Part shown: piece by piece, positions 4,367 to 46,871 of the stretch
Position numbering within the stretch: position 1 is the first letter of the stretch
Layout: every line of letters begins with the position of its first letter
From: Deltaproteobacteria bacterium
GTDB taxonomy: Bacteria > Myxococcota_A > UBA9160 > SMWR01
Length of the DNA: 64,000 nucleotides
NCBI GenBank assembly: GCA_032128375.1
Contig: JAQBGU010000002.1
Location: 6,400-70,399 of the forward strand
Direction of reading: 5' to 3'
Position numbers and translations under genes: made by a program
The notes under the pieces: generated by a model
The model's database searches: none
What the model was told of the DNA's origin: nothing
Seen by the model: the letters and a program-made list of their open reading frames with translations, nothing else

Positions 4367-4390
4367 GGGTACTGTCTCCTGGTATGGGCG

Positions 4391-4456
4391 CAGTTGCGAT
4401 TGCGAGCAGTTGTAGTTGCGTGTAGTTGCGTGTAGTTGCGAGTAGTTGCAGTTGAG
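4391..4456. repeat. 10-bp tandem repeat array (TGTAGTTGCG x3 perfect, degenerate flanking copies)
   Basis: Perfect copies at 4411-4440, flanked by CAGTTGCGAT/TGCGAGCAGT and AGTAGTTGCA/GTTGAG. The array starts 25 nt upstream of the di-iron oxygenase start codon. Confidence 0.9.
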
Positions 4457-29062: not shown

Positions 29063-29109
29063 ATATATATATCTACAGAGAGAGAGCTAGAGAGTTAGAG
29101 AGTTAGAGG
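29063..29109. repeat. simple-sequence block: (AT)5, (GA)n, then 8-bp GAGAGTTA x2.5
   Basis: ATATATATAT CTACAGAGAGAGAG CTA GAGAGTTA GAGAGTTA GAGG, in the divergent region between MaoC (start 28959) and dcd (start 29229). Low complexity like this is atypical in this GC-rich window. Confidence 0.85.
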
Positions 29110-30004: not shown

Positions 30005-30637
30005 TTATCCAACCGCGGTACTGGCCAGAACCAACTGCGCCACAAAGTACATTGGCAATCCCCACGCGCTGTTGACGAAGCTGGCTTCGATGAAGCGATT
30101 TCGCGCAACCGAAAGATCCGATACCGCAAACAACAGCGCACCGGCTGCGATCGCGGCCGATCCGGTTTCGATCGAGGCAGATCCGGCGAAGCTGAGCATC
30201 GCAGCGATCGCAATGATGTAGGCCGGTACGGCGTTGCGAAACAACCCGGTCAAATGGGGCCGGAGCCACCGGTGTAGCAGCACACCTGCAGCGGCGGTGA
30301 TCGTCGCGCAAAGGGCCAATGCGCGCCATGACACGCCCAGGTTCGAGAACGCCACGGCGAAAGCGAGATGTCCCAGAAAAAATCCCCCAATCCCGAACAG
30401 AAAGCAGGTGGGACGTCTCTCGGGGATCAACAGCACATCTCCAAGCCAGCACAAACACAGTGCCGCGACGACCAGACGGCCGTAATCGGACTCGAGCGCT
30501 CCACCCGCGACGGCCGCTGCGATGTACGCACTGGCAGCAGTCGTCTTGCACACCCAGATCCCCGCCCGATGGTTCGTGCGTTCTGCAGCCACCAGTCCGC
30601 CACACGCGAGTAAGCACAGCAGTGCGAAGGCAATCAC
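30005..30637 (-). CDS. YhhN/lysoplasmalogenase family membrane protein
   Basis: Seven to eight hydrophobic helices with LCWLGDVLLI and LLFAVSDLSVARNRF motifs. Its GTG start overlaps the amrA stop (GTGA). Confidence 0.7.
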   Translation of the reverse strand: MIAFALLCLLACGGLVAAERTNHRAGIWVCKTTAASAYIAAAVAGGALESDYGRLVVAALCLCWLGDVLLIPERRPTCFLFGIGGFFLGHLAFAVAFSNLGVSWRALALCATITAAAGVLLHRWLRPHLTGLFRNAVPAYIIAIAAMLSFAGSASIETGSAAIAAGALLFAVSDLSVARNRFIEASFVNSAWGLPMYFVAQLVLASTAVG

Positions 30638-31254
30638 GATCGGCTCACCGTGTCAGCCACTCGGTCGCCGCCGCCGTCAGATGCATCACCTGGCTCCTGC
30701 GGAATCGAATCGACGGTATACCGGAGCACTTCCCAGTCACGCGACCAGCTGTCCGGCGGCAGACCGGCCTTGCGCTTGAGCTGCCGAACGAATTCGGCCG
30801 GCTCGGCGAGACTCTCCCAGACGCAAGGCAGAAAAGTTCCGCCGTGAGTTCTGTCGCGGAGAACCAACCCATCGATTCCGGGTCGCAATTGGCGCAACAG
30901 GTCCGATTCGTCTGCGACTGGAAGCGGCTCGAGCGGGCTGAGGATCGACACGTGGATCTCGAGATGGATCAGTTCCGCGTTGGATAGAGGGGCAAAGCGC
31001 GGGTCGCGAAACGCCGCGGCGTGGGCGTTGTGTGCGACGTCGGATACCAGCGGGCGGCTGGCTTCGAGCGCACCCATGCAGCCGCGCAGTTCGCCTTCGC
31101 GGTGCAGCGTGACGAAAGTGGCACGCCGCTCCCTCAGGGGGGCAGGGAAATCTTTCACGTCCAACCGGAGCAAATCGCGCGTCGCGACACCGTGTTCGAT
31201 CGATCGTCTGGCGATTTCGAGCAGAGAGTGTTCAGCAGAAGACGTAGGATCCAT
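30634..31254 (-). CDS. amrA: AmmeMemoRadiSam system protein A (AMMECR1 domain)
   Basis: RATFVTLHREGELRGCMGALEASRPL...AFRDPRFAPL...HLEIHVSILSPLEP...GLVLR...GTFLPCVWE. Start ATG 31254 overlaps the amrB 3' end by 23 nt. Confidence 0.85.
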   Translation of the reverse strand: MDPTSSAEHSLLEIARRSIEHGVATRDLLRLDVKDFPAPLRERRATFVTLHREGELRGCMGALEASRPLVSDVAHNAHAAAFRDPRFAPLSNAELIHLEIHVSILSPLEPLPVADESDLLRQLRPGIDGLVLRDRTHGGTFLPCVWESLAEPAEFVRQLKRKAGLPPDSWSRDWEVLRYTVDSIPQEPGDASDGGGDRVADTVSRS

Positions 31255-32023
31255 ACCCGACGACCTCCCGCTTGCCGCCCGCTGTGTCGCCCGAGTTGCG
31301 CAGGTCGACCGTCTTCGCGCTGAGTCCATGGCGTTTGGCCGCCAGCAGCAAGCCGCGGGTCGGAACGCGCCCGCAGGCAGATTCGGCATCGAGTCCGCGC
31401 TCGTCGAGTGCTTCGATCGCTCGACTGGTGGCGGCATCGCGAGTCCGCGCGATTTCATAGGGGTAGTAGTGGCTCAAATCCGAACTCACCACGATTTGTG
31501 TTTCCGCAGTACCCCAGAGTGCTTCGAGCACTTCGCTGACCTGTTCGGGCGCGCTATCGCCGACCGACAGAGGGACGAGAAGAAAATCGCCGAGGAGATA
31601 CTGCAGGAACGGCAACTGGACTTCGAGGCTGTGCTCGGCCTCGTGCGCGGCGTCGAAGATGCGAACTTGCGGGAACGCGAGAATCCGATCGATCGCGTCG
31701 CGATCCAGCCGCACTTCGCCGAGTGGCGTTTCGAATGCGTCGGCGCTCGAAGCCGCGAGCCCGCGCAGCGGGACCCGATGAGAGGGGCCCAGCAAGACGA
31801 CTCGGGTGACGATGCCACGCAACCGCGCGATGCGCGCGTATGCGGTCGCCGCAACCGGTCCCGAGTACACGAACCCGGCGTGCGGCACGATCAGCGCCTT
31901 GGGAGCTGGGATGCCAGGTGGATCGATCGGCGCGCCGGCCAGATATCCCGCAAGCGAGCGTTCGAGTTCGGCGCGATCTTCGGGATAGAAGAGGCCGGCG
32001 ACGGCGGAACGGCGGATTTTCAT
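31232..32023 (-). CDS. amrB: AmmeMemoRadiSam system protein B (MEMO1 family)
   Basis: RSAVAGLFYPED...ALIVPHAGFVYSG...LLGPSH...EHSLEVQLPFLQ...VVSSDLSHY... AGGAGA lies upstream of the ATG. Confidence 0.9.
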   Translation of the reverse strand: MKIRRSAVAGLFYPEDRAELERSLAGYLAGAPIDPPGIPAPKALIVPHAGFVYSGPVAATAYARIARLRGIVTRVVLLGPSHRVPLRGLAASSADAFETPLGEVRLDRDAIDRILAFPQVRIFDAAHEAEHSLEVQLPFLQYLLGDFLLVPLSVGDSAPEQVSEVLEALWGTAETQIVVSSDLSHYYPYEIARTRDAATSRAIEALDERGLDAESACGRVPTRGLLLAAKRHGLSAKTVDLRNSGDTAGGKREVVGYGSYVFC

Positions 32024-32040
32024 GGCGGACGTTTCTCCTG

Positions 32041-32130
32041 GGCGTCGCTGGGTGCCGCTGGGTGTCGCTGGGTGTCGCTGGGCGTCGCTGGGCGTCGCTG
32101 GGTGTCGCTGGGTGTCGCTGGGTGTCGCAC
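32041..32130. repeat. nine tandem copies of a 10-bp unit (GGYGYCGCTG)
   Basis: GGCGTCGCTG GGTGCCGCTG GGTGTCGCTG x2 GGCGTCGCTG x2 GGTGTCGCTG x2 GGTGTCGCAC. The array ends 17 nt upstream of the amrB start, with only the SD between, and lies about 120 nt upstream of the divergent amrS start. Confidence 0.95.
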
Positions 32131-32252
32131 AGTGCCTGAAGGTACCGATTTGACAGGTTCTGGTCGCGCTGCATCCTTATCACAGAGCATTCATCAGCGA
32201 ACTGGCGTGTGGCATTCGCGCCGCTTCCCACTGTTCCACCGAAGGAGGGCTT

Positions 32253-33371
32253 GTGGCCGCATTCCCCGACGACAGCGGACAGGTTTCTGGGCGTTACTTC
32301 CACGCTCTCGACGACGGGCGGCTGCAGTGTGATCTGTGCCCGCGCGAGTGCCGGCTGAACGATGGCCAACGTGGCCTGTGTTTCGTAAGGGCTCGCGCGG
32401 GCGACGAGATGGTGCTGACGACATACGGGCGATCGAGCGGCTACTGCGTGGACCCGATCGAGAAGAAACCGCTGAATCATTTCCTTCCGGGTACGCCGGT
32501 GTTGTCGTTCGGAACGGCCGGTTGCAACCTGTCGTGTCGGTTCTGCCAGAACTGGGACATCAGCAAGTCGAGAGAGTTCGACACATTGTCCGACGCCGCT
32601 TCTCCGACCCAGATCGCGAGCGCTGCGCGAGAACTCGGCTGCCGCAGTGTCGCGTTTACCTACAACGACCCGGTGATCTTTCTCGAGTACGCGGTCGACA
32701 CCGCCGAGGCCTGCCGCGAAGCGGGCATTCGATCGGTCGCAGTGACGGCCGGCTATGTCAATGACGCGCCCCGCCGCGAATTCTTTGCGCAGATGGATGC
32801 GGCCAATGTCGACCTGAAGGCGTTTACCGATGCGTTCTATCGCAAGGTCTGCGGTGGCCGCCTGGCACCGGTTTTGGAAACCCTGTGTTATTTGAAACGG
32901 GAGACCGCGGTCTGGTTCGAGATCACGACGCTGCTCATCCCGGGCGAAAACGACTCGGACGCGGAGTTGCACGCGGCCAGCCAGTGGGTGGCCGAGCAGC
33001 TGGGACCGGACGTTCCATGGCACTTTACCGCCTTCCACCCCGACTACCGGATGCTCGACAAAGCGCGAACGCCGGCCGCGACGCTGACACGTGCGCGAAA
33101 CATCGCGCGAAGCTACGGGCTCCACTACGTCTACACAGGAAACGTCCGAGACGAACGCGGTGGGAGCACACTGTGTCACGCGTGCGGCGAGATTGCGATC
33201 GGTCGAGACCAGTACGTGTTGACGCGCTGGACGCTGACTGACGACGGGTGTTGCCAAGCTTGCGGCGAACGCTGCGCCGGCATATTCGACGGACCGCCCG
33301 GGGAGTGGGGCGCTCGCAGGCTCCCCGTGCGTCTCGCGGATTTCGCGGGGCCTGGGCGAGAAGACCGCTAA
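32253..33371 (+). CDS. amrS: AmmeMemoRadiSam system radical SAM enzyme
   Basis: LQCDLCPRECRL..GQRGLC ... SFGTAGCNLSCRFCQNWDIS (CxxxCxxC radical SAM cluster). AAGGAGG lies upstream of the GTG start. Confidence 0.9.
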   Translation: MAAFPDDSGQVSGRYFHALDDGRLQCDLCPRECRLNDGQRGLCFVRARAGDEMVLTTYGRSSGYCVDPIEKKPLNHFLPGTPVLSFGTAGCNLSCRFCQNWDISKSREFDTLSDAASPTQIASAARELGCRSVAFTYNDPVIFLEYAVDTAEACREAGIRSVAVTAGYVNDAPRREFFAQMDAANVDLKAFTDAFYRKVCGGRLAPVLETLCYLKRETAVWFEITTLLIPGENDSDAELHAASQWVAEQLGPDVPWHFTAFHPDYRMLDKARTPAATLTRARNIARSYGLHYVYTGNVRDERGGSTLCHACGEIAIGRDQYVLTRWTLTDDGCCQACGERCAGIFDGPPGEWGARRLPVRLADFAGPGREDR

Positions 33372-35072: not shown

Positions 35073-35164
35073 TCGAAACCGATGGCTGCGGTTTTTGATG
35101 TCGACAAGGGGCACTGTTCAAAGACCGGGTGCATGAACGGGGAGGATGAACCATTGCGAACGAA

Positions 35165-35455
35165 ATGGCGAACGAAATGGCGAACGAAATGGCGGACGAA
35201 ATGACGGACGAAATGACGGACGAACAGATGAAGGCCGAGCTCGAGCGGCTTCGCGCCGAGAATGCTTCGCTCAAGACCCGCAGCGAGAAGGGCTTGAGTT
35301 TGAAGGTGAGCCAGAAGGGGGGGGTGTCGGTGTACGGGCTCGGGCGTTTTCCGGTCACGCTCTACAAGGAGCAGTGGACCCGGCTGCTCGACATGAGCGA
35401 CGAGATTCGGACGTTCATGGAACAGAACGAAGGCGAGCTCAAGACCAAGGATTGA
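35165..35455 (+). CDS. small hypothetical protein with N-terminal (A/T)(N/D)EM tetrapeptide repeats and coiled-coil
   Basis: MANEMANEMADEMTDEMTDEQMKAELERLRAENASLKTRSEKGLSLKVSQKGGVSVYGLGRFPVTLYKEQWTRLLD... Codon usage is coding-like. The repeat is 12 bp x6 (35155-35226), and which ATG is used is unclear. Confidence 0.55.
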   Translation: MANEMANEMADEMTDEMTDEQMKAELERLRAENASLKTRSEKGLSLKVSQKGGVSVYGLGRFPVTLYKEQWTRLLDMSDEIRTFMEQNEGELKTKD

Positions 35456-35508: not shown

Positions 35509-35709
35509 ATGGACGAAGACAGCAATCGACTGGACCGCCTTGGCAATTTCGGGCACGCTGAAACCGAGCCCAGCGCAGAGGCGGCCGGCCAGCGGGAAGT
35601 GGCAGCCCAGCTGCGGGCGCTTTCTAATGGGCTCGGAAGCAGCAGCGCTTCGGTATCGGAATTGACGCAAGTCGCCGCGCAGCCGTTTTCCACGATCGCA
35701 GGTCTCTGA
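35509..35709 (+). CDS. possible small hypothetical protein (66 aa)
   Basis: MDEDSNRLDRLGNFGHAETEPSAEAAGQREVAAQLRALSNGLGSSSASVSELTQVAAQPFSTIAGL. The composition is plausible, but there is no clear SD and no recognisable family. Confidence 0.25.
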   Translation: MDEDSNRLDRLGNFGHAETEPSAEAAGQREVAAQLRALSNGLGSSSASVSELTQVAAQPFSTIAGL

Positions 35710-35926
35710 AATAGTAGCAGGCTTCGCAAGCGCATCGTGACCGTAGGCGACAGTTGCAGGACTGCTTGCCAACTTCTCTGTCGATCGACTTCACGCCTGG
35801 CAAGGCACCGACCCGCGCCGAACGGGTCGAGACAACTGCGCGCACAACGTGAAGTTCTCACGGCCGTGAACAGCAAGCCCACCGCTAGAGTGCACGATCG
35901 GTCGCAATGAGTAGAATGAAGCGGGG

Positions 35927-36013
35927 CCTGTAGAGGGCGTGTAGAGGGCCTGTTGAGTACCTGTTGAGTACCTGTTGAAGAACCTGTCGAGAACCTGTTG
36001 AGAGCCTGTCGAA
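35927..36013. repeat. about eight tandem copies of an 11-12 bp unit (CCTGTTGAGTA-like)
   Basis: GCCTGTAGAGGG CGTGTAGAGGG CCTGTTGAGTA CCTGTTGAGTA CCTGTTGAAGAA CCTGTCGAGAA CCTGTTGAGAG CCTGTCGAACG, ending about 70 nt upstream of the GNAT gene start. Confidence 0.9.
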
Positions 36014-36083
36014 CGCGTCGACTCCACGGCGGAACCGTCGGCCGATACCGATCGCCGCACATCGAACCGGAGAGATCGCGGAA

Positions 36084-44894: not shown

Positions 44895-46871
44895 TCACTG
44901 TAGAGCGGCTTTTCTCGGCCTATCCTCCAGAAGTACACCCAGGTTGTACTGGGCCTCTGCGTAGTCCGGCCTGATCCGTAAGGCCTCTTGGTAGTGCGTC
45001 ATCGCCTCTGCGAGGCGTCCCAGGTCCTGGACGGCGAGGGCCCAGTTGTAGTGAGCCTCGGCCAGGTTCGTCTTGTTCCGCAAGGCATCTCGGTAGTGCG
45101 CGATCGCCTCCTCAGAACGGCCGAGGTTCGCCAACGCGGTTCCCCAGTTGTAATGGGCATCGGCGTAGTCCGGCTCGATCCGCAATGCGTGTTCGTAATG
45201 CGCAACTGACTCCTCGAAGCGCCCCAACAGCTGCAGGGCGGTGCCCCAGCCGTCATGGGCCTTGGCGTGATCCGGCTCCAACCGCAAGGCCTTTTGGTAA
45301 TGCGCCACCGCCTCTTCAGGACGGCCAAGACCCGCCAGGGCAACGCCCCAGTTGTAGTGGGCCTCCGCGTAGTCCGGCTCGATCTGCAACGCTTCTTGAA
45401 CTTGGGTCAGCGCCGCATCAAAGCGTCCGACCCTTCCCAGAGCGGCGCCCAGGTTGTTGTGGGCTCTGGCGTGCTGGGGGCTCTTCGAGACCACATCGCT
45501 CCAGAGCGTGATCTCGTCCTGCCAGACCTGGTTTCGGTGGTACGAACCTACTGCCAGTAGCAGACAGATGGCCGCGGGCACGGCGACCGCCCAGCCCGAC
45601 GGGGCCCCCGTTCCAGCGAACAGCAGCCAGGCCAGCAACAGTGAAAAGCCGACCATTGGCAGATACAACCGGTGCTCGAAAACCATCTCCAGCCCGATCA
45701 CACTCGATTCGATCACCAGGTGCAGGAAAAACCATAACAAGCAGAAGGAAGCAATCCGATGTCGGTGCGCCAGATAGAGGGTCAGGCCCAACAGGCCAGA
45801 GATACCCACCATCGAGAGCAACGTGGTGATCGGTTCGATCGGAGATTGCGAAGGGACGACTTGATGAATCAGGTTCAGTCGCGACGGATGTGGCACCGCC
45901 AGCAGGCTGAGATAGAACATGACGACGCGAAATTGTGTCATTAGCCGCTGGCCCAACGTGAAGTCACGATGGGCGTAGCTCGCCAACAACCTGTCGAGTG
46001 GCTCACTGCCCAGGTAGAGCCACGCCAGCAACCCCAGCAACCCCAGCAGCGCCAACGCCAGCAATCCGAACTTTGTGTTCTTCTTGGCACCAGCAACGCC
46101 CGAGTCCTGAAAGAAGTACCACTCGAACCACAGGATGGTCACCGGCAGGGTGACGGAGATCTGCTTGCTGCCCAAAGCCAATAGCCAACAGACAACGCTG
46201 CTTGCCCAAAGTGTCCAGCGACGACGGGGCGCCTGTGCAGTGCGTCCGTAGATATAGAGCAACAGCGCCGCCAGGTAGAAAAATGCGCACAGGCTGGTCA
46301 TCCGCTGGACGATGTACGTCACCGCCTGAGTTTGGATCGGATGACTGGCGAAGATCAGGGCAGCTGTCAGCGCGATCCAATGCGAAACGGAAGGCCGCAA
46401 CAGGCGGTCCTCGCGCGGCGGGACCCGCCGGAGCACGGCCAGCGCCAGCAGGTACACGAGCAAGGCAGTGAGCAGGTGGATGCCGATGTTGACGACATGG
46501 TATCCCCTGACGTTGTGCTGGCCGAAGTAGTAGTTCAGCGCGAAGGAAAGGTTCGCCACCGGCCGACTCGGACTGGGGCTCTCGCGCACGGCTCCTTGCA
46601 CGCCCGACCAGCTGAAGTCCGTCCAGCGTAGGCTCCGGTTGTCTTGGATGTTGGGAACGTCATCAAAGACAAACGGCCCGGAAAGGCTGTTCGAATAAGC
46701 GGCCAGACAGAGAACAGCGATAGATGACATCGCGAACACGTGAAATGCGCCGTGTCGGCCGGGGACTGAATCAACGGCGTTTTGCGACGCCGCTTTTCGC
46801 GGATTGGATTTTCGGCTGAAGCTCTTTCGACGGCCCACGCGTGCGATTGTAACCCGACCCGGGACTTGCAT
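44895..46871 (-). CDS. TMTC-like protein: GT-C-type membrane domain plus C-terminal TPR array
   Basis: N-terminal helices with FVFDDVPNIQDN (a DD loop-1 motif as in PMT/TMTC). The C-terminus has about 8 TPRs (repeated AHYNWGxAL...GRxEEAxxHYxxALRxxPDxAxA). Confidence 0.75.
   Translation of the reverse strand: MQVPGRVTIARVGRRKSFSRKSNPRKAASQNAVDSVPGRHGAFHVFAMSSIAVLCLAAYSNSLSGPFVFDDVPNIQDNRSLRWTDFSWSGVQGAVRESPSPSRPVANLSFALNYYFGQHNVRGYHVVNIGIHLLTALLVYLLALAVLRRVPPREDRLLRPSVSHWIALTAALIFASHPIQTQAVTYIVQRMTSLCAFFYLAALLLYIYGRTAQAPRRRWTLWASSVVCWLLALGSKQISVTLPVTILWFEWYFFQDSGVAGAKKNTKFGLLALALLGLLGLLAWLYLGSEPLDRLLASYAHRDFTLGQRLMTQFRVVMFYLSLLAVPHPSRLNLIHQVVPSQSPIEPITTLLSMVGISGLLGLTLYLAHRHRIASFCLLWFFLHLVIESSVIGLEMVFEHRLYLPMVGFSLLLAWLLFAGTGAPSGWAVAVPAAICLLLAVGSYHRNQVWQDEITLWSDVVSKSPQHARAHNNLGAALGRVGRFDAALTQVQEALQIEPDYAEAHYNWGVALAGLGRPEEAVAHYQKALRLEPDHAKAHDGWGTALQLLGRFEESVAHYEHALRIEPDYADAHYNWGTALANLGRSEEAIAHYRDALRNKTNLAEAHYNWALAVQDLGRLAEAMTHYQEALRIRPDYAEAQYNLGVLLEDRPRKAALQ

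Follow-up and report, generated by a model that had tools for sequence, protein, structure and literature searches.

A probable lineage-specific VNTR in the amrB leader of an uncultured Myxococcota lineage

Between the divergent genes amrB and amrS of the Myxococcota genome considered here, a 10-bp sequence is repeated nine times from head to tail. An earlier note on this DNA placed the repeats in a control region, where they might bind proteins cooperatively, bend the DNA or tune both transcription units by slippage. The question is whether the array is such a control element of the AmmeMemoRadiSam genes or a leader sequence that has expanded recently. The analysis covered the window, that is, the whole 64-kb stretch of DNA in which the array lies, together with related loci from other genomes and metagenomes.

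The array and its genes

The gene amrB encodes AmmeMemoRadiSam system protein B of the Memo family (31232..32023, minus strand; TIGR04336, 4e-79) and is the first gene of an amrB-amrA-yhhN operon. Downstream, amrA of the AMMECR1 family (30634..31254, minus) overlaps the end of amrB and is in turn overlapped at its end by the gene of a YhhN-family membrane protein (30005..30637, minus; PF07947), which probably belongs to the same operon. On the other side lies amrS, the AmmeMemoRadiSam radical SAM enzyme gene (32253..33371, plus; TIGR04337, 2e-191), with a GTG start preceded by the Shine-Dalgarno (SD) sequence GAAGGAGG at 32241-32248. The two TIGRFAM matches confirm the identity of the flanking genes given earlier. 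The closest named homologues are found in Myxococcota MAGs. No regulator gene adjoins the array locus, a scan for tRNA and tmRNA genes found none, and none of the papers found to mention AmmeMemoRadiSam seems, judged by title or abstract, to deal with the regulation of these genes.

The intergenic region measures 229 bp (32024-32252), as the earlier note had it, of which the array takes up 90 bp or 39% and not most, as the note also had it. The array spans 32040-32129 and is made up of eight exact GGGYGYCGCT units (plus strand) followed by a ninth that ends in A (GGGTGTCGCA, 32120-32129) and has one mismatch to the pattern. On the plus strand the order of the units is GGGCGTCGCT GGGTGCCGCT GGGTGTCGCT GGGTGTCGCT GGGCGTCGCT GGGCGTCGCT GGGTGTCGCT GGGTGTCGCT GGGTGTCGCA; in the sense of amrB it reads TGCGACACCC, two copies of AGCGACACCC, two of AGCGACGCCC, two of AGCGACACCC, AGCGGCACCC and AGCGACGCCC. 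The register proposed before, GGYGYCGCTG at 32041-32130, describes the same array shifted by one base, but its last unit then deviates at two bases. The distance of 17 nt to the amrB start codon is correct in that register and becomes 16 nt for 32040-32129. The SD of amrB, AGGAGA (32034..32039, minus), abuts the last unit, lies 10 nt from the ATG and is kept as AGGRGA/AGGGGA among relatives.

Tandem Repeats Finder reports period 10, 9.1 copies, 93% matches and a score of 154 at 32038-32128, the top score of any short-period array in the window. The pattern GGGYGYCGCT has eight in-phase matches at 32040-32119 and two others in the 64 kb; shuffled sequences are expected to contain 1.29 +/- 1.16 matches and none of 100 shuffles reaches 10. 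The nine-copy 10-bp tandem array is thereby confirmed. It is not a CRISPR, as had been recognised, for the copies are contiguous and have no unique spacers between them. The same nine units in the same variant order occur in MAG contig JAQBGZ010000105.1 (GCA_032128195.1) and in separate Logan assemblies of the runs ERR5010722 and ERR5010721, while in a third assembly, of run ERR5010711, the contig breaks at the edge of the array. The runs that carry the nine-unit array are Baltic Sea metagenomes. Since the order is found in separate assemblies, the array is not an assembly artefact.

Copy number among relatives and arrays elsewhere

The copy number at this site falls with growing distance from the window genome, from nine to three to one. 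The closest relative, a sister MAG (GCA_032125315.1) whose AmrB is 98% identical and whose DNA is about 95% identical to the window, has three units at the orthologous site, as do two further assemblies. Its units are TGCGACACCC AGCGGCACTC AGCGACACCC, followed by AGGAGA, and a global alignment of the two genomes shows at the array a single clean gap of 60 bp. Relatives with 84-87% identity in AmrB (the loci L011, L112/L111 and L009 and the translated upstream region of P0005) have one GCGACACCC-like unit before AGGGGA. Locus L110 (AmrB 82%) has no array of the amrB unit, and two loci with AmrS at 82-86% (L113 and L114) have no unit at all. In the alignment of the region among relatives (A1), the variable array stands between conserved flanks, namely a promoter-like block on one side and the SD on the other. 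Copy-number variation, a check that the earlier note had proposed, is thus observed among relatives, and the slippage-type change of copy number suggested there does occur at the amrB locus.

The units themselves record part of this history. The middle unit of the sister, AGCGGCACTC, and unit 8 of the window have a GGC variant in common, which implies an ancestor with at least three units, and the extra units of the window array lie in its interior. Because relatives carry three, one or no units, the array is best regarded as a recent, lineage-specific expansion of leader sequence. It would have started from a single pre-existing GCGACACCC motif immediately 5' of the amrB SD and grown by replication slippage or unequal recombination. 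In the common ancestor of two Baltic Sea Myxococcota populations the one copy would have become three or more, and these populations now carry nine (window) and three (sister). The locus combines a short head-to-tail unit, conserved flanks and 9, 3, 1 or 0 copies at the orthologous site, and the array is quite likely a lineage-specific VNTR (a 10-bp minisatellite) in the amrB leader, near-neutral and not a conserved control element. Its near-neutrality is argued from poor conservation and small predicted effects. Against this account speaks the agreement in copy number among all assemblies of one population: no instability within populations is seen, although consensus short-read assemblies would hide it.

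Arrays of the same 10-mer also occur in distant genomes. When 185,579 species genomes were scanned for 2.7 or more units, 17 independent cases of 3-6 homogeneous units turned up, all in high-GC genomes that are unrelated; the species of the window was not among the matches. Almost all of the cases fall outside what is likely to be coding sequence, and their direction relative to the next gene is not biased (8 have the C-rich strand as sense, 6 the G-rich strand and 3 are unclear). It follows that the amrB 10-mer is not a shared functional element, and the cases match what would be expected of slippage in GC-rich non-coding DNA.

Within the lineage itself short arrays are dense. The window contains nine, versus 3 in 249 kb of eighty other amr loci, a background on repeat density taken from an AmrB metagenome scan that yielded mostly distant relatives (at most 61% identity, with one partial match at 75%). 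The four window arrays whose period is not a multiple of three are all non-coding and upstream of gene starts, and every non-coding array of the window for which the sister has comparable sequence differs between the two genomes.

Several tandem arrays of the window and the sister are worth describing individually. At 4390-4449 a 10-bp-type array (TGTAGTTGCG x3.9 and related units) repeats the layout seen at amrB: a 372-aa gene (start 4366, minus) begins 24 nt downstream of it, with the SD AGGAG in between, and the sense strand of the array is rich in C and A. The N-terminus MANEMANEMADEMTDEMTDE of a 96-aa protein is encoded by a 12-bp array (x5.8) at 35156-35224; in the sister (L109 3460-3600) it has only about 2-3 units, and a different 12-bp array (x4) stands instead just upstream of the SD of that gene. 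An 11-bp array (x7.7, CCTGTTGAGTA-like) at 35924-36013 precedes a GNAT acetyltransferase gene (start 36084, plus) by about 70 nt; the segment around it (35683-36048) has no homologous counterpart in the sister, where a 4HBT thioesterase gene is found in its place. Upstream of dcd, the CT-rich arrays of the divergent region are built from different units in the window and the sister, AACTCTCT x3.5 in one and TCTCTA x8.8 in the other (window 29081-29108; L109 9705-9764). In the sister only, a 13-bp array (x3.5; L109 1355-1400) runs right up to the start codon of the gene for an acyl-CoA dehydrogenase, and each of its units contains an SD-like GAGG. A 102-bp repeat (x4.5) at 44938-45398 is part of a minus-strand ORF of 659 aa that probably encodes a repeat-domain protein, TPR-like by its periodicity.

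The amr genes of more distant relatives have arrays of their own. L110 has an independent, perfect 15-bp x2 duplication (1459-1488) 14 nt upstream of the amrB ATG, and 12-bp arrays stand at the amrA start in L110 (2276-2321) and L011 (1563-1601). These arrays indicate that the leader and N-terminal regions of amr genes have been hit repeatedly by tandem duplication in the clade. Among the 80 other loci the only comparable case is an unrelated metagenomic amr locus (L045 1403-1436) with TATTGCG x4.9 about 65 nt upstream of amrB.

Promoter candidates and the amrB leader

The place of the array relative to the promoters can be deduced from conservation and composition. Beyond the array, a block at 32139..32179, in amrB sense TAAGGATGCAGCGCGACCAGAACCTGTCAAATCGGTACCTT, is conserved in alignment A1 and also occurs in L113 and L114. 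Across relatives it consists of TTGACA-N16-CATCYT towards amrS and TAnnnT towards amrB, and it is probably the core of two back-to-back promoters, candidates put forward on the grounds of conservation. In the direction of amrS, the candidate promoter would comprise TTGACA (32150-32155), a 16-nt spacer and CATCCT (32172-32177) on the plus strand. Its hexamers are conserved among relatives and its spacer is variable. Conserved hexamers with a variable spacer are the usual signature of a promoter. A scan with a strict sigma-70 consensus gave no match, the amrS candidate falling narrowly below it. In the direction of amrB, a candidate -10 element, TACCTT (32139..32144, minus; TATTCT or TAACCT in relatives, that is, TAnnnT), lies 9 nt before the array and is accompanied by a weak -35; it would put the start of transcription 1-3 nt before the array. 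Visual inspection of the array and of the block for sigma-54 and ECF-type motifs gave no candidate with a fitting spacing. The outer parts of the block also form an imperfect inverted repeat (TTGACAGG ... CCTTATCA), which could be an operator.

The plus strand of the array is free of A, and its minus strand is free of T from the second base on, which rules out a sigma-70 -10 element within it. With no -10 possible inside and the conserved promoter-like block on its far side, the array is assigned to the 5'UTR of amrB; most likely it is transcribed and makes up nearly all of this UTR in the amrB-amrA-yhhN mRNA. In that case the leader would be about 108 nt long in the window genome, compared with about 48 nt for the sister and about 28 nt for the single-copy relatives, and the array RNA would be a C-rich, G-poor and T-free stretch without stable predicted structure. 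Relative to the candidate amrS promoter, the array would lie upstream of about -55, and an effect on amrS is unlikely for this reason.

Predictions of how the array might act on amrB are modest. The RNA leader folds no better than its shuffles (z = +1.2) and its centroid structure is almost unpaired, the DNA strand folds worse than shuffles (z = +2.35), and no relevant inverted repeats or hairpins were found in or around the array. Rfam returned no match at the gathering score and, in a permissive search, one chance-level match outside the array (E = 0.05). In isogenic models with 0-9 units, the energy predicted for opening the ribosome binding site (from the SD to +13) is 6.3 kcal/mol with one unit versus 8.0 kcal/mol with nine, a result that is the same whichever transcription start is assumed. 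The predicted effect on the accessibility of the amrB ribosome binding site is thus small, a rise of 1-2 kcal/mol. Composition alone hints that there might be an effect. Measured over 78 nt, the C/G ratio of the RNA strand is about 2.0-2.2, a rut-like value that ranks among the top 1.2% of windows. A rut site is a stretch of some 80 nt of untranslated RNA that is rich in C, poor in G and unstructured; the leader fits in composition and in its lack of structure, would presumably be transcribed and untranslated, and is a putative target of Rho at most. The array would probably be neutral or would change amrB translation or mRNA fate modestly, and the tuning of expression for which the earlier note allowed remains putative in the case of amrB.

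Alternative readings and known systems

A reading that goes further takes the leader for a tunable, contingency-type locus, in which changes of copy number are selected and the length or composition of the leader sets the expression of amrBA. Two opposite routes can be imagined: a tract of about 90 nt that is C-rich, G-poor and unstructured may load Rho and attenuate transcription when translation is poor, or the same tract may serve as a standby platform for ribosomes. The position directly 5' of the SD within the inferred 5'UTR, the C/G ratio together with the absence of stable predicted structure, and the difference in copy number between sister populations all agree with such a role. There is also a precedent in Moraxella catarrhalis, where repeats upstream of genes or in the 5'UTR grade expression (PMC7302503, PMC4679880). 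We nevertheless consider this reading unlikely. Each population is uniform in copy number, with nine units in three assemblies and three units in three, although these are consensus short-read assemblies that would hide variation and the MAGs may share runs; a search with AmrS for further strains found only two MAG lineages in the collection. The predicted shift in ribosome binding site accessibility is small, the same 10-mer elsewhere has no preferred orientation, and arrays of unrelated units near many genes of the lineage fit a mutational bias better than selection on amrB. A phase-variable, SSR-mediated contingency locus is expected to have its repeat within the -35/-10 spacer or an ORF; the array lies outside the ORF and downstream of the promoter-like block, and we do not count it among such loci. 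Extended to the whole lineage, the idea would be that the Baltic Myxococcota have unusually active tandem duplication of 10-15 bp beside translation starts and exploit it as contingency loci, with the amrB leader length (28, 48 or 108 nt) setting the expression of the operon through a rut- or standby-like C-rich tract. This broader version is speculative, and we give it little credence.

The control element envisaged by the earlier note would be an array of nine phased protein-binding sites, or a segment of curved DNA, that governs both divergent promoters. A period of 10 bp, approximately one helical turn, and the location between divergent genes speak in its favour, but it has become very improbable. 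Against cooperative binding stand close relatives in which the gene pair and the promoter-like block are the same but the unit is single or absent, the lack of enrichment of the unit elsewhere in the window and the absence of an adjacent regulator gene. An operator or iteron-type array is likewise not supported, as relatives at 82-87% identity that share the genes have one or no unit. Nor does the array contain the A-tracts expected of curved DNA. In a wedge model, whose bend and twist values are approximate, the bend amounts to 27 degrees per 90 bp. Tiles of the window average 21 +/- 11 degrees, and 28% of them bend as much; permuted units give a mean of 43.5 degrees, whereas phased A-tract controls reach about 135-140. 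Such a bend is ordinary, and intrinsic curvature is not supported. The placement of all units on one face of the helix is not supported either, for in the same approximate model the summed twist of 339.5 degrees per unit makes the phase drift by about 20 degrees per unit, or about 180 degrees across the array.

The nine GGG tracts of the plus strand, which is the template strand of amrB, are separated by 7-nt loops and could alternatively act as a G-quadruplex / i-motif element that folds under negative supercoiling and so blocks or modulates transcription. The canonical G3N1-7 pattern is present (regular expression, 32040-32122) as one of four such sites in the 64 kb. The commonly used G4Hunter cut-off is about 1.2. 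The array remains below it, with a mean of 0.83 and a maximum of 1.12, every loop is at the 7-nt limit, and relatives with three copies or one cannot form a quadruplex, so that the property is not conserved; the idea has very little chance of being right. With G-quadruplex motifs and rut sites the array shares G3N7 nine times over on the plus strand and, in the RNA, a C-rich, G-poor and unstructured stretch of more than 78 nt, but this is a resemblance of composition, sub-threshold in G4Hunter, and neither property is found in the one- and three-copy relatives.

It is scarcely credible that the array is an assembly artefact, given its recurrence in the same unit order in separate assemblies, or part of a 56-aa upstream ORF (32190-32020, minus) that contains it and whose stop overlaps the amrB ATG (ATGA). 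The ORF does exist and its frame is kept in the sister, where 60 bp correspond to 20 codons, but it has no SD and no family match, it is not conserved in L011 (with an 83-bp intergenic region and no ATGA overlap), all three substitutions between window and sister are non-synonymous, and open frames are common at 62% GC. A leader peptide was rejected on these grounds.

Among known systems, a probable VNTR in the amrB leader has familiar counterparts. Strain-variable short intergenic minisatellites with conserved flanks are used as VNTR/MLVA loci in Xanthomonas, Mycobacterium and Burkholderia, and from these high-GC loci the array does not differ in any essential respect. The nearest precedents with a function are tracts of Moraxella catarrhalis that lie between promoter and start codon and vary in copy number from strain to strain: AGAT(n) at uspA2 has 6-23 units and GACTGTTT(n), 25 bp upstream of a glutathione reductase gene, has 2-17 units (PMC4679880, PMC7302503); the copy number changes mRNA levels and the loci are classed as phase-variable (PMC7302503, PMC4679880). 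The amrB array is similarly upstream of a start, probably in the 5'UTR, and differs in copy number between relatives, but its unit is longer (10 bp), its host is a free-living sediment bacterium and any effect of its copy number on expression, or any switching within a population, would be putative. The TAACTGA heptamer arrays of marine Beggiatoaceae lie just upstream of start codons and differ between close strains by insertions or deletions of whole units (PMC4679880). They too are short direct repeats upstream of starts that change in whole-unit steps. The heptamer, however, recurs at about 169 sites and so points to a shared binding factor (PMC4679880), whereas in the window each array is built on a different unit and that of amrB is not used again.

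The array is thus a new locus of the known VNTR kind, in an uncultured Myxococcota lineage. It illustrates how a comparison of close relatives can both date and explain a striking periodic array in a "control region". The AmmeMemoRadiSam system itself is still uncharacterised, and the array is not its conserved regulatory device. The excess of short arrays near gene starts is a sign that the lineage is prone to tandem duplication. For these Baltic Myxococcota populations the array may serve as a strain marker, and its one, three and nine copies offer a natural allelic series for the effects of leader length and of a C-rich leader on expression.
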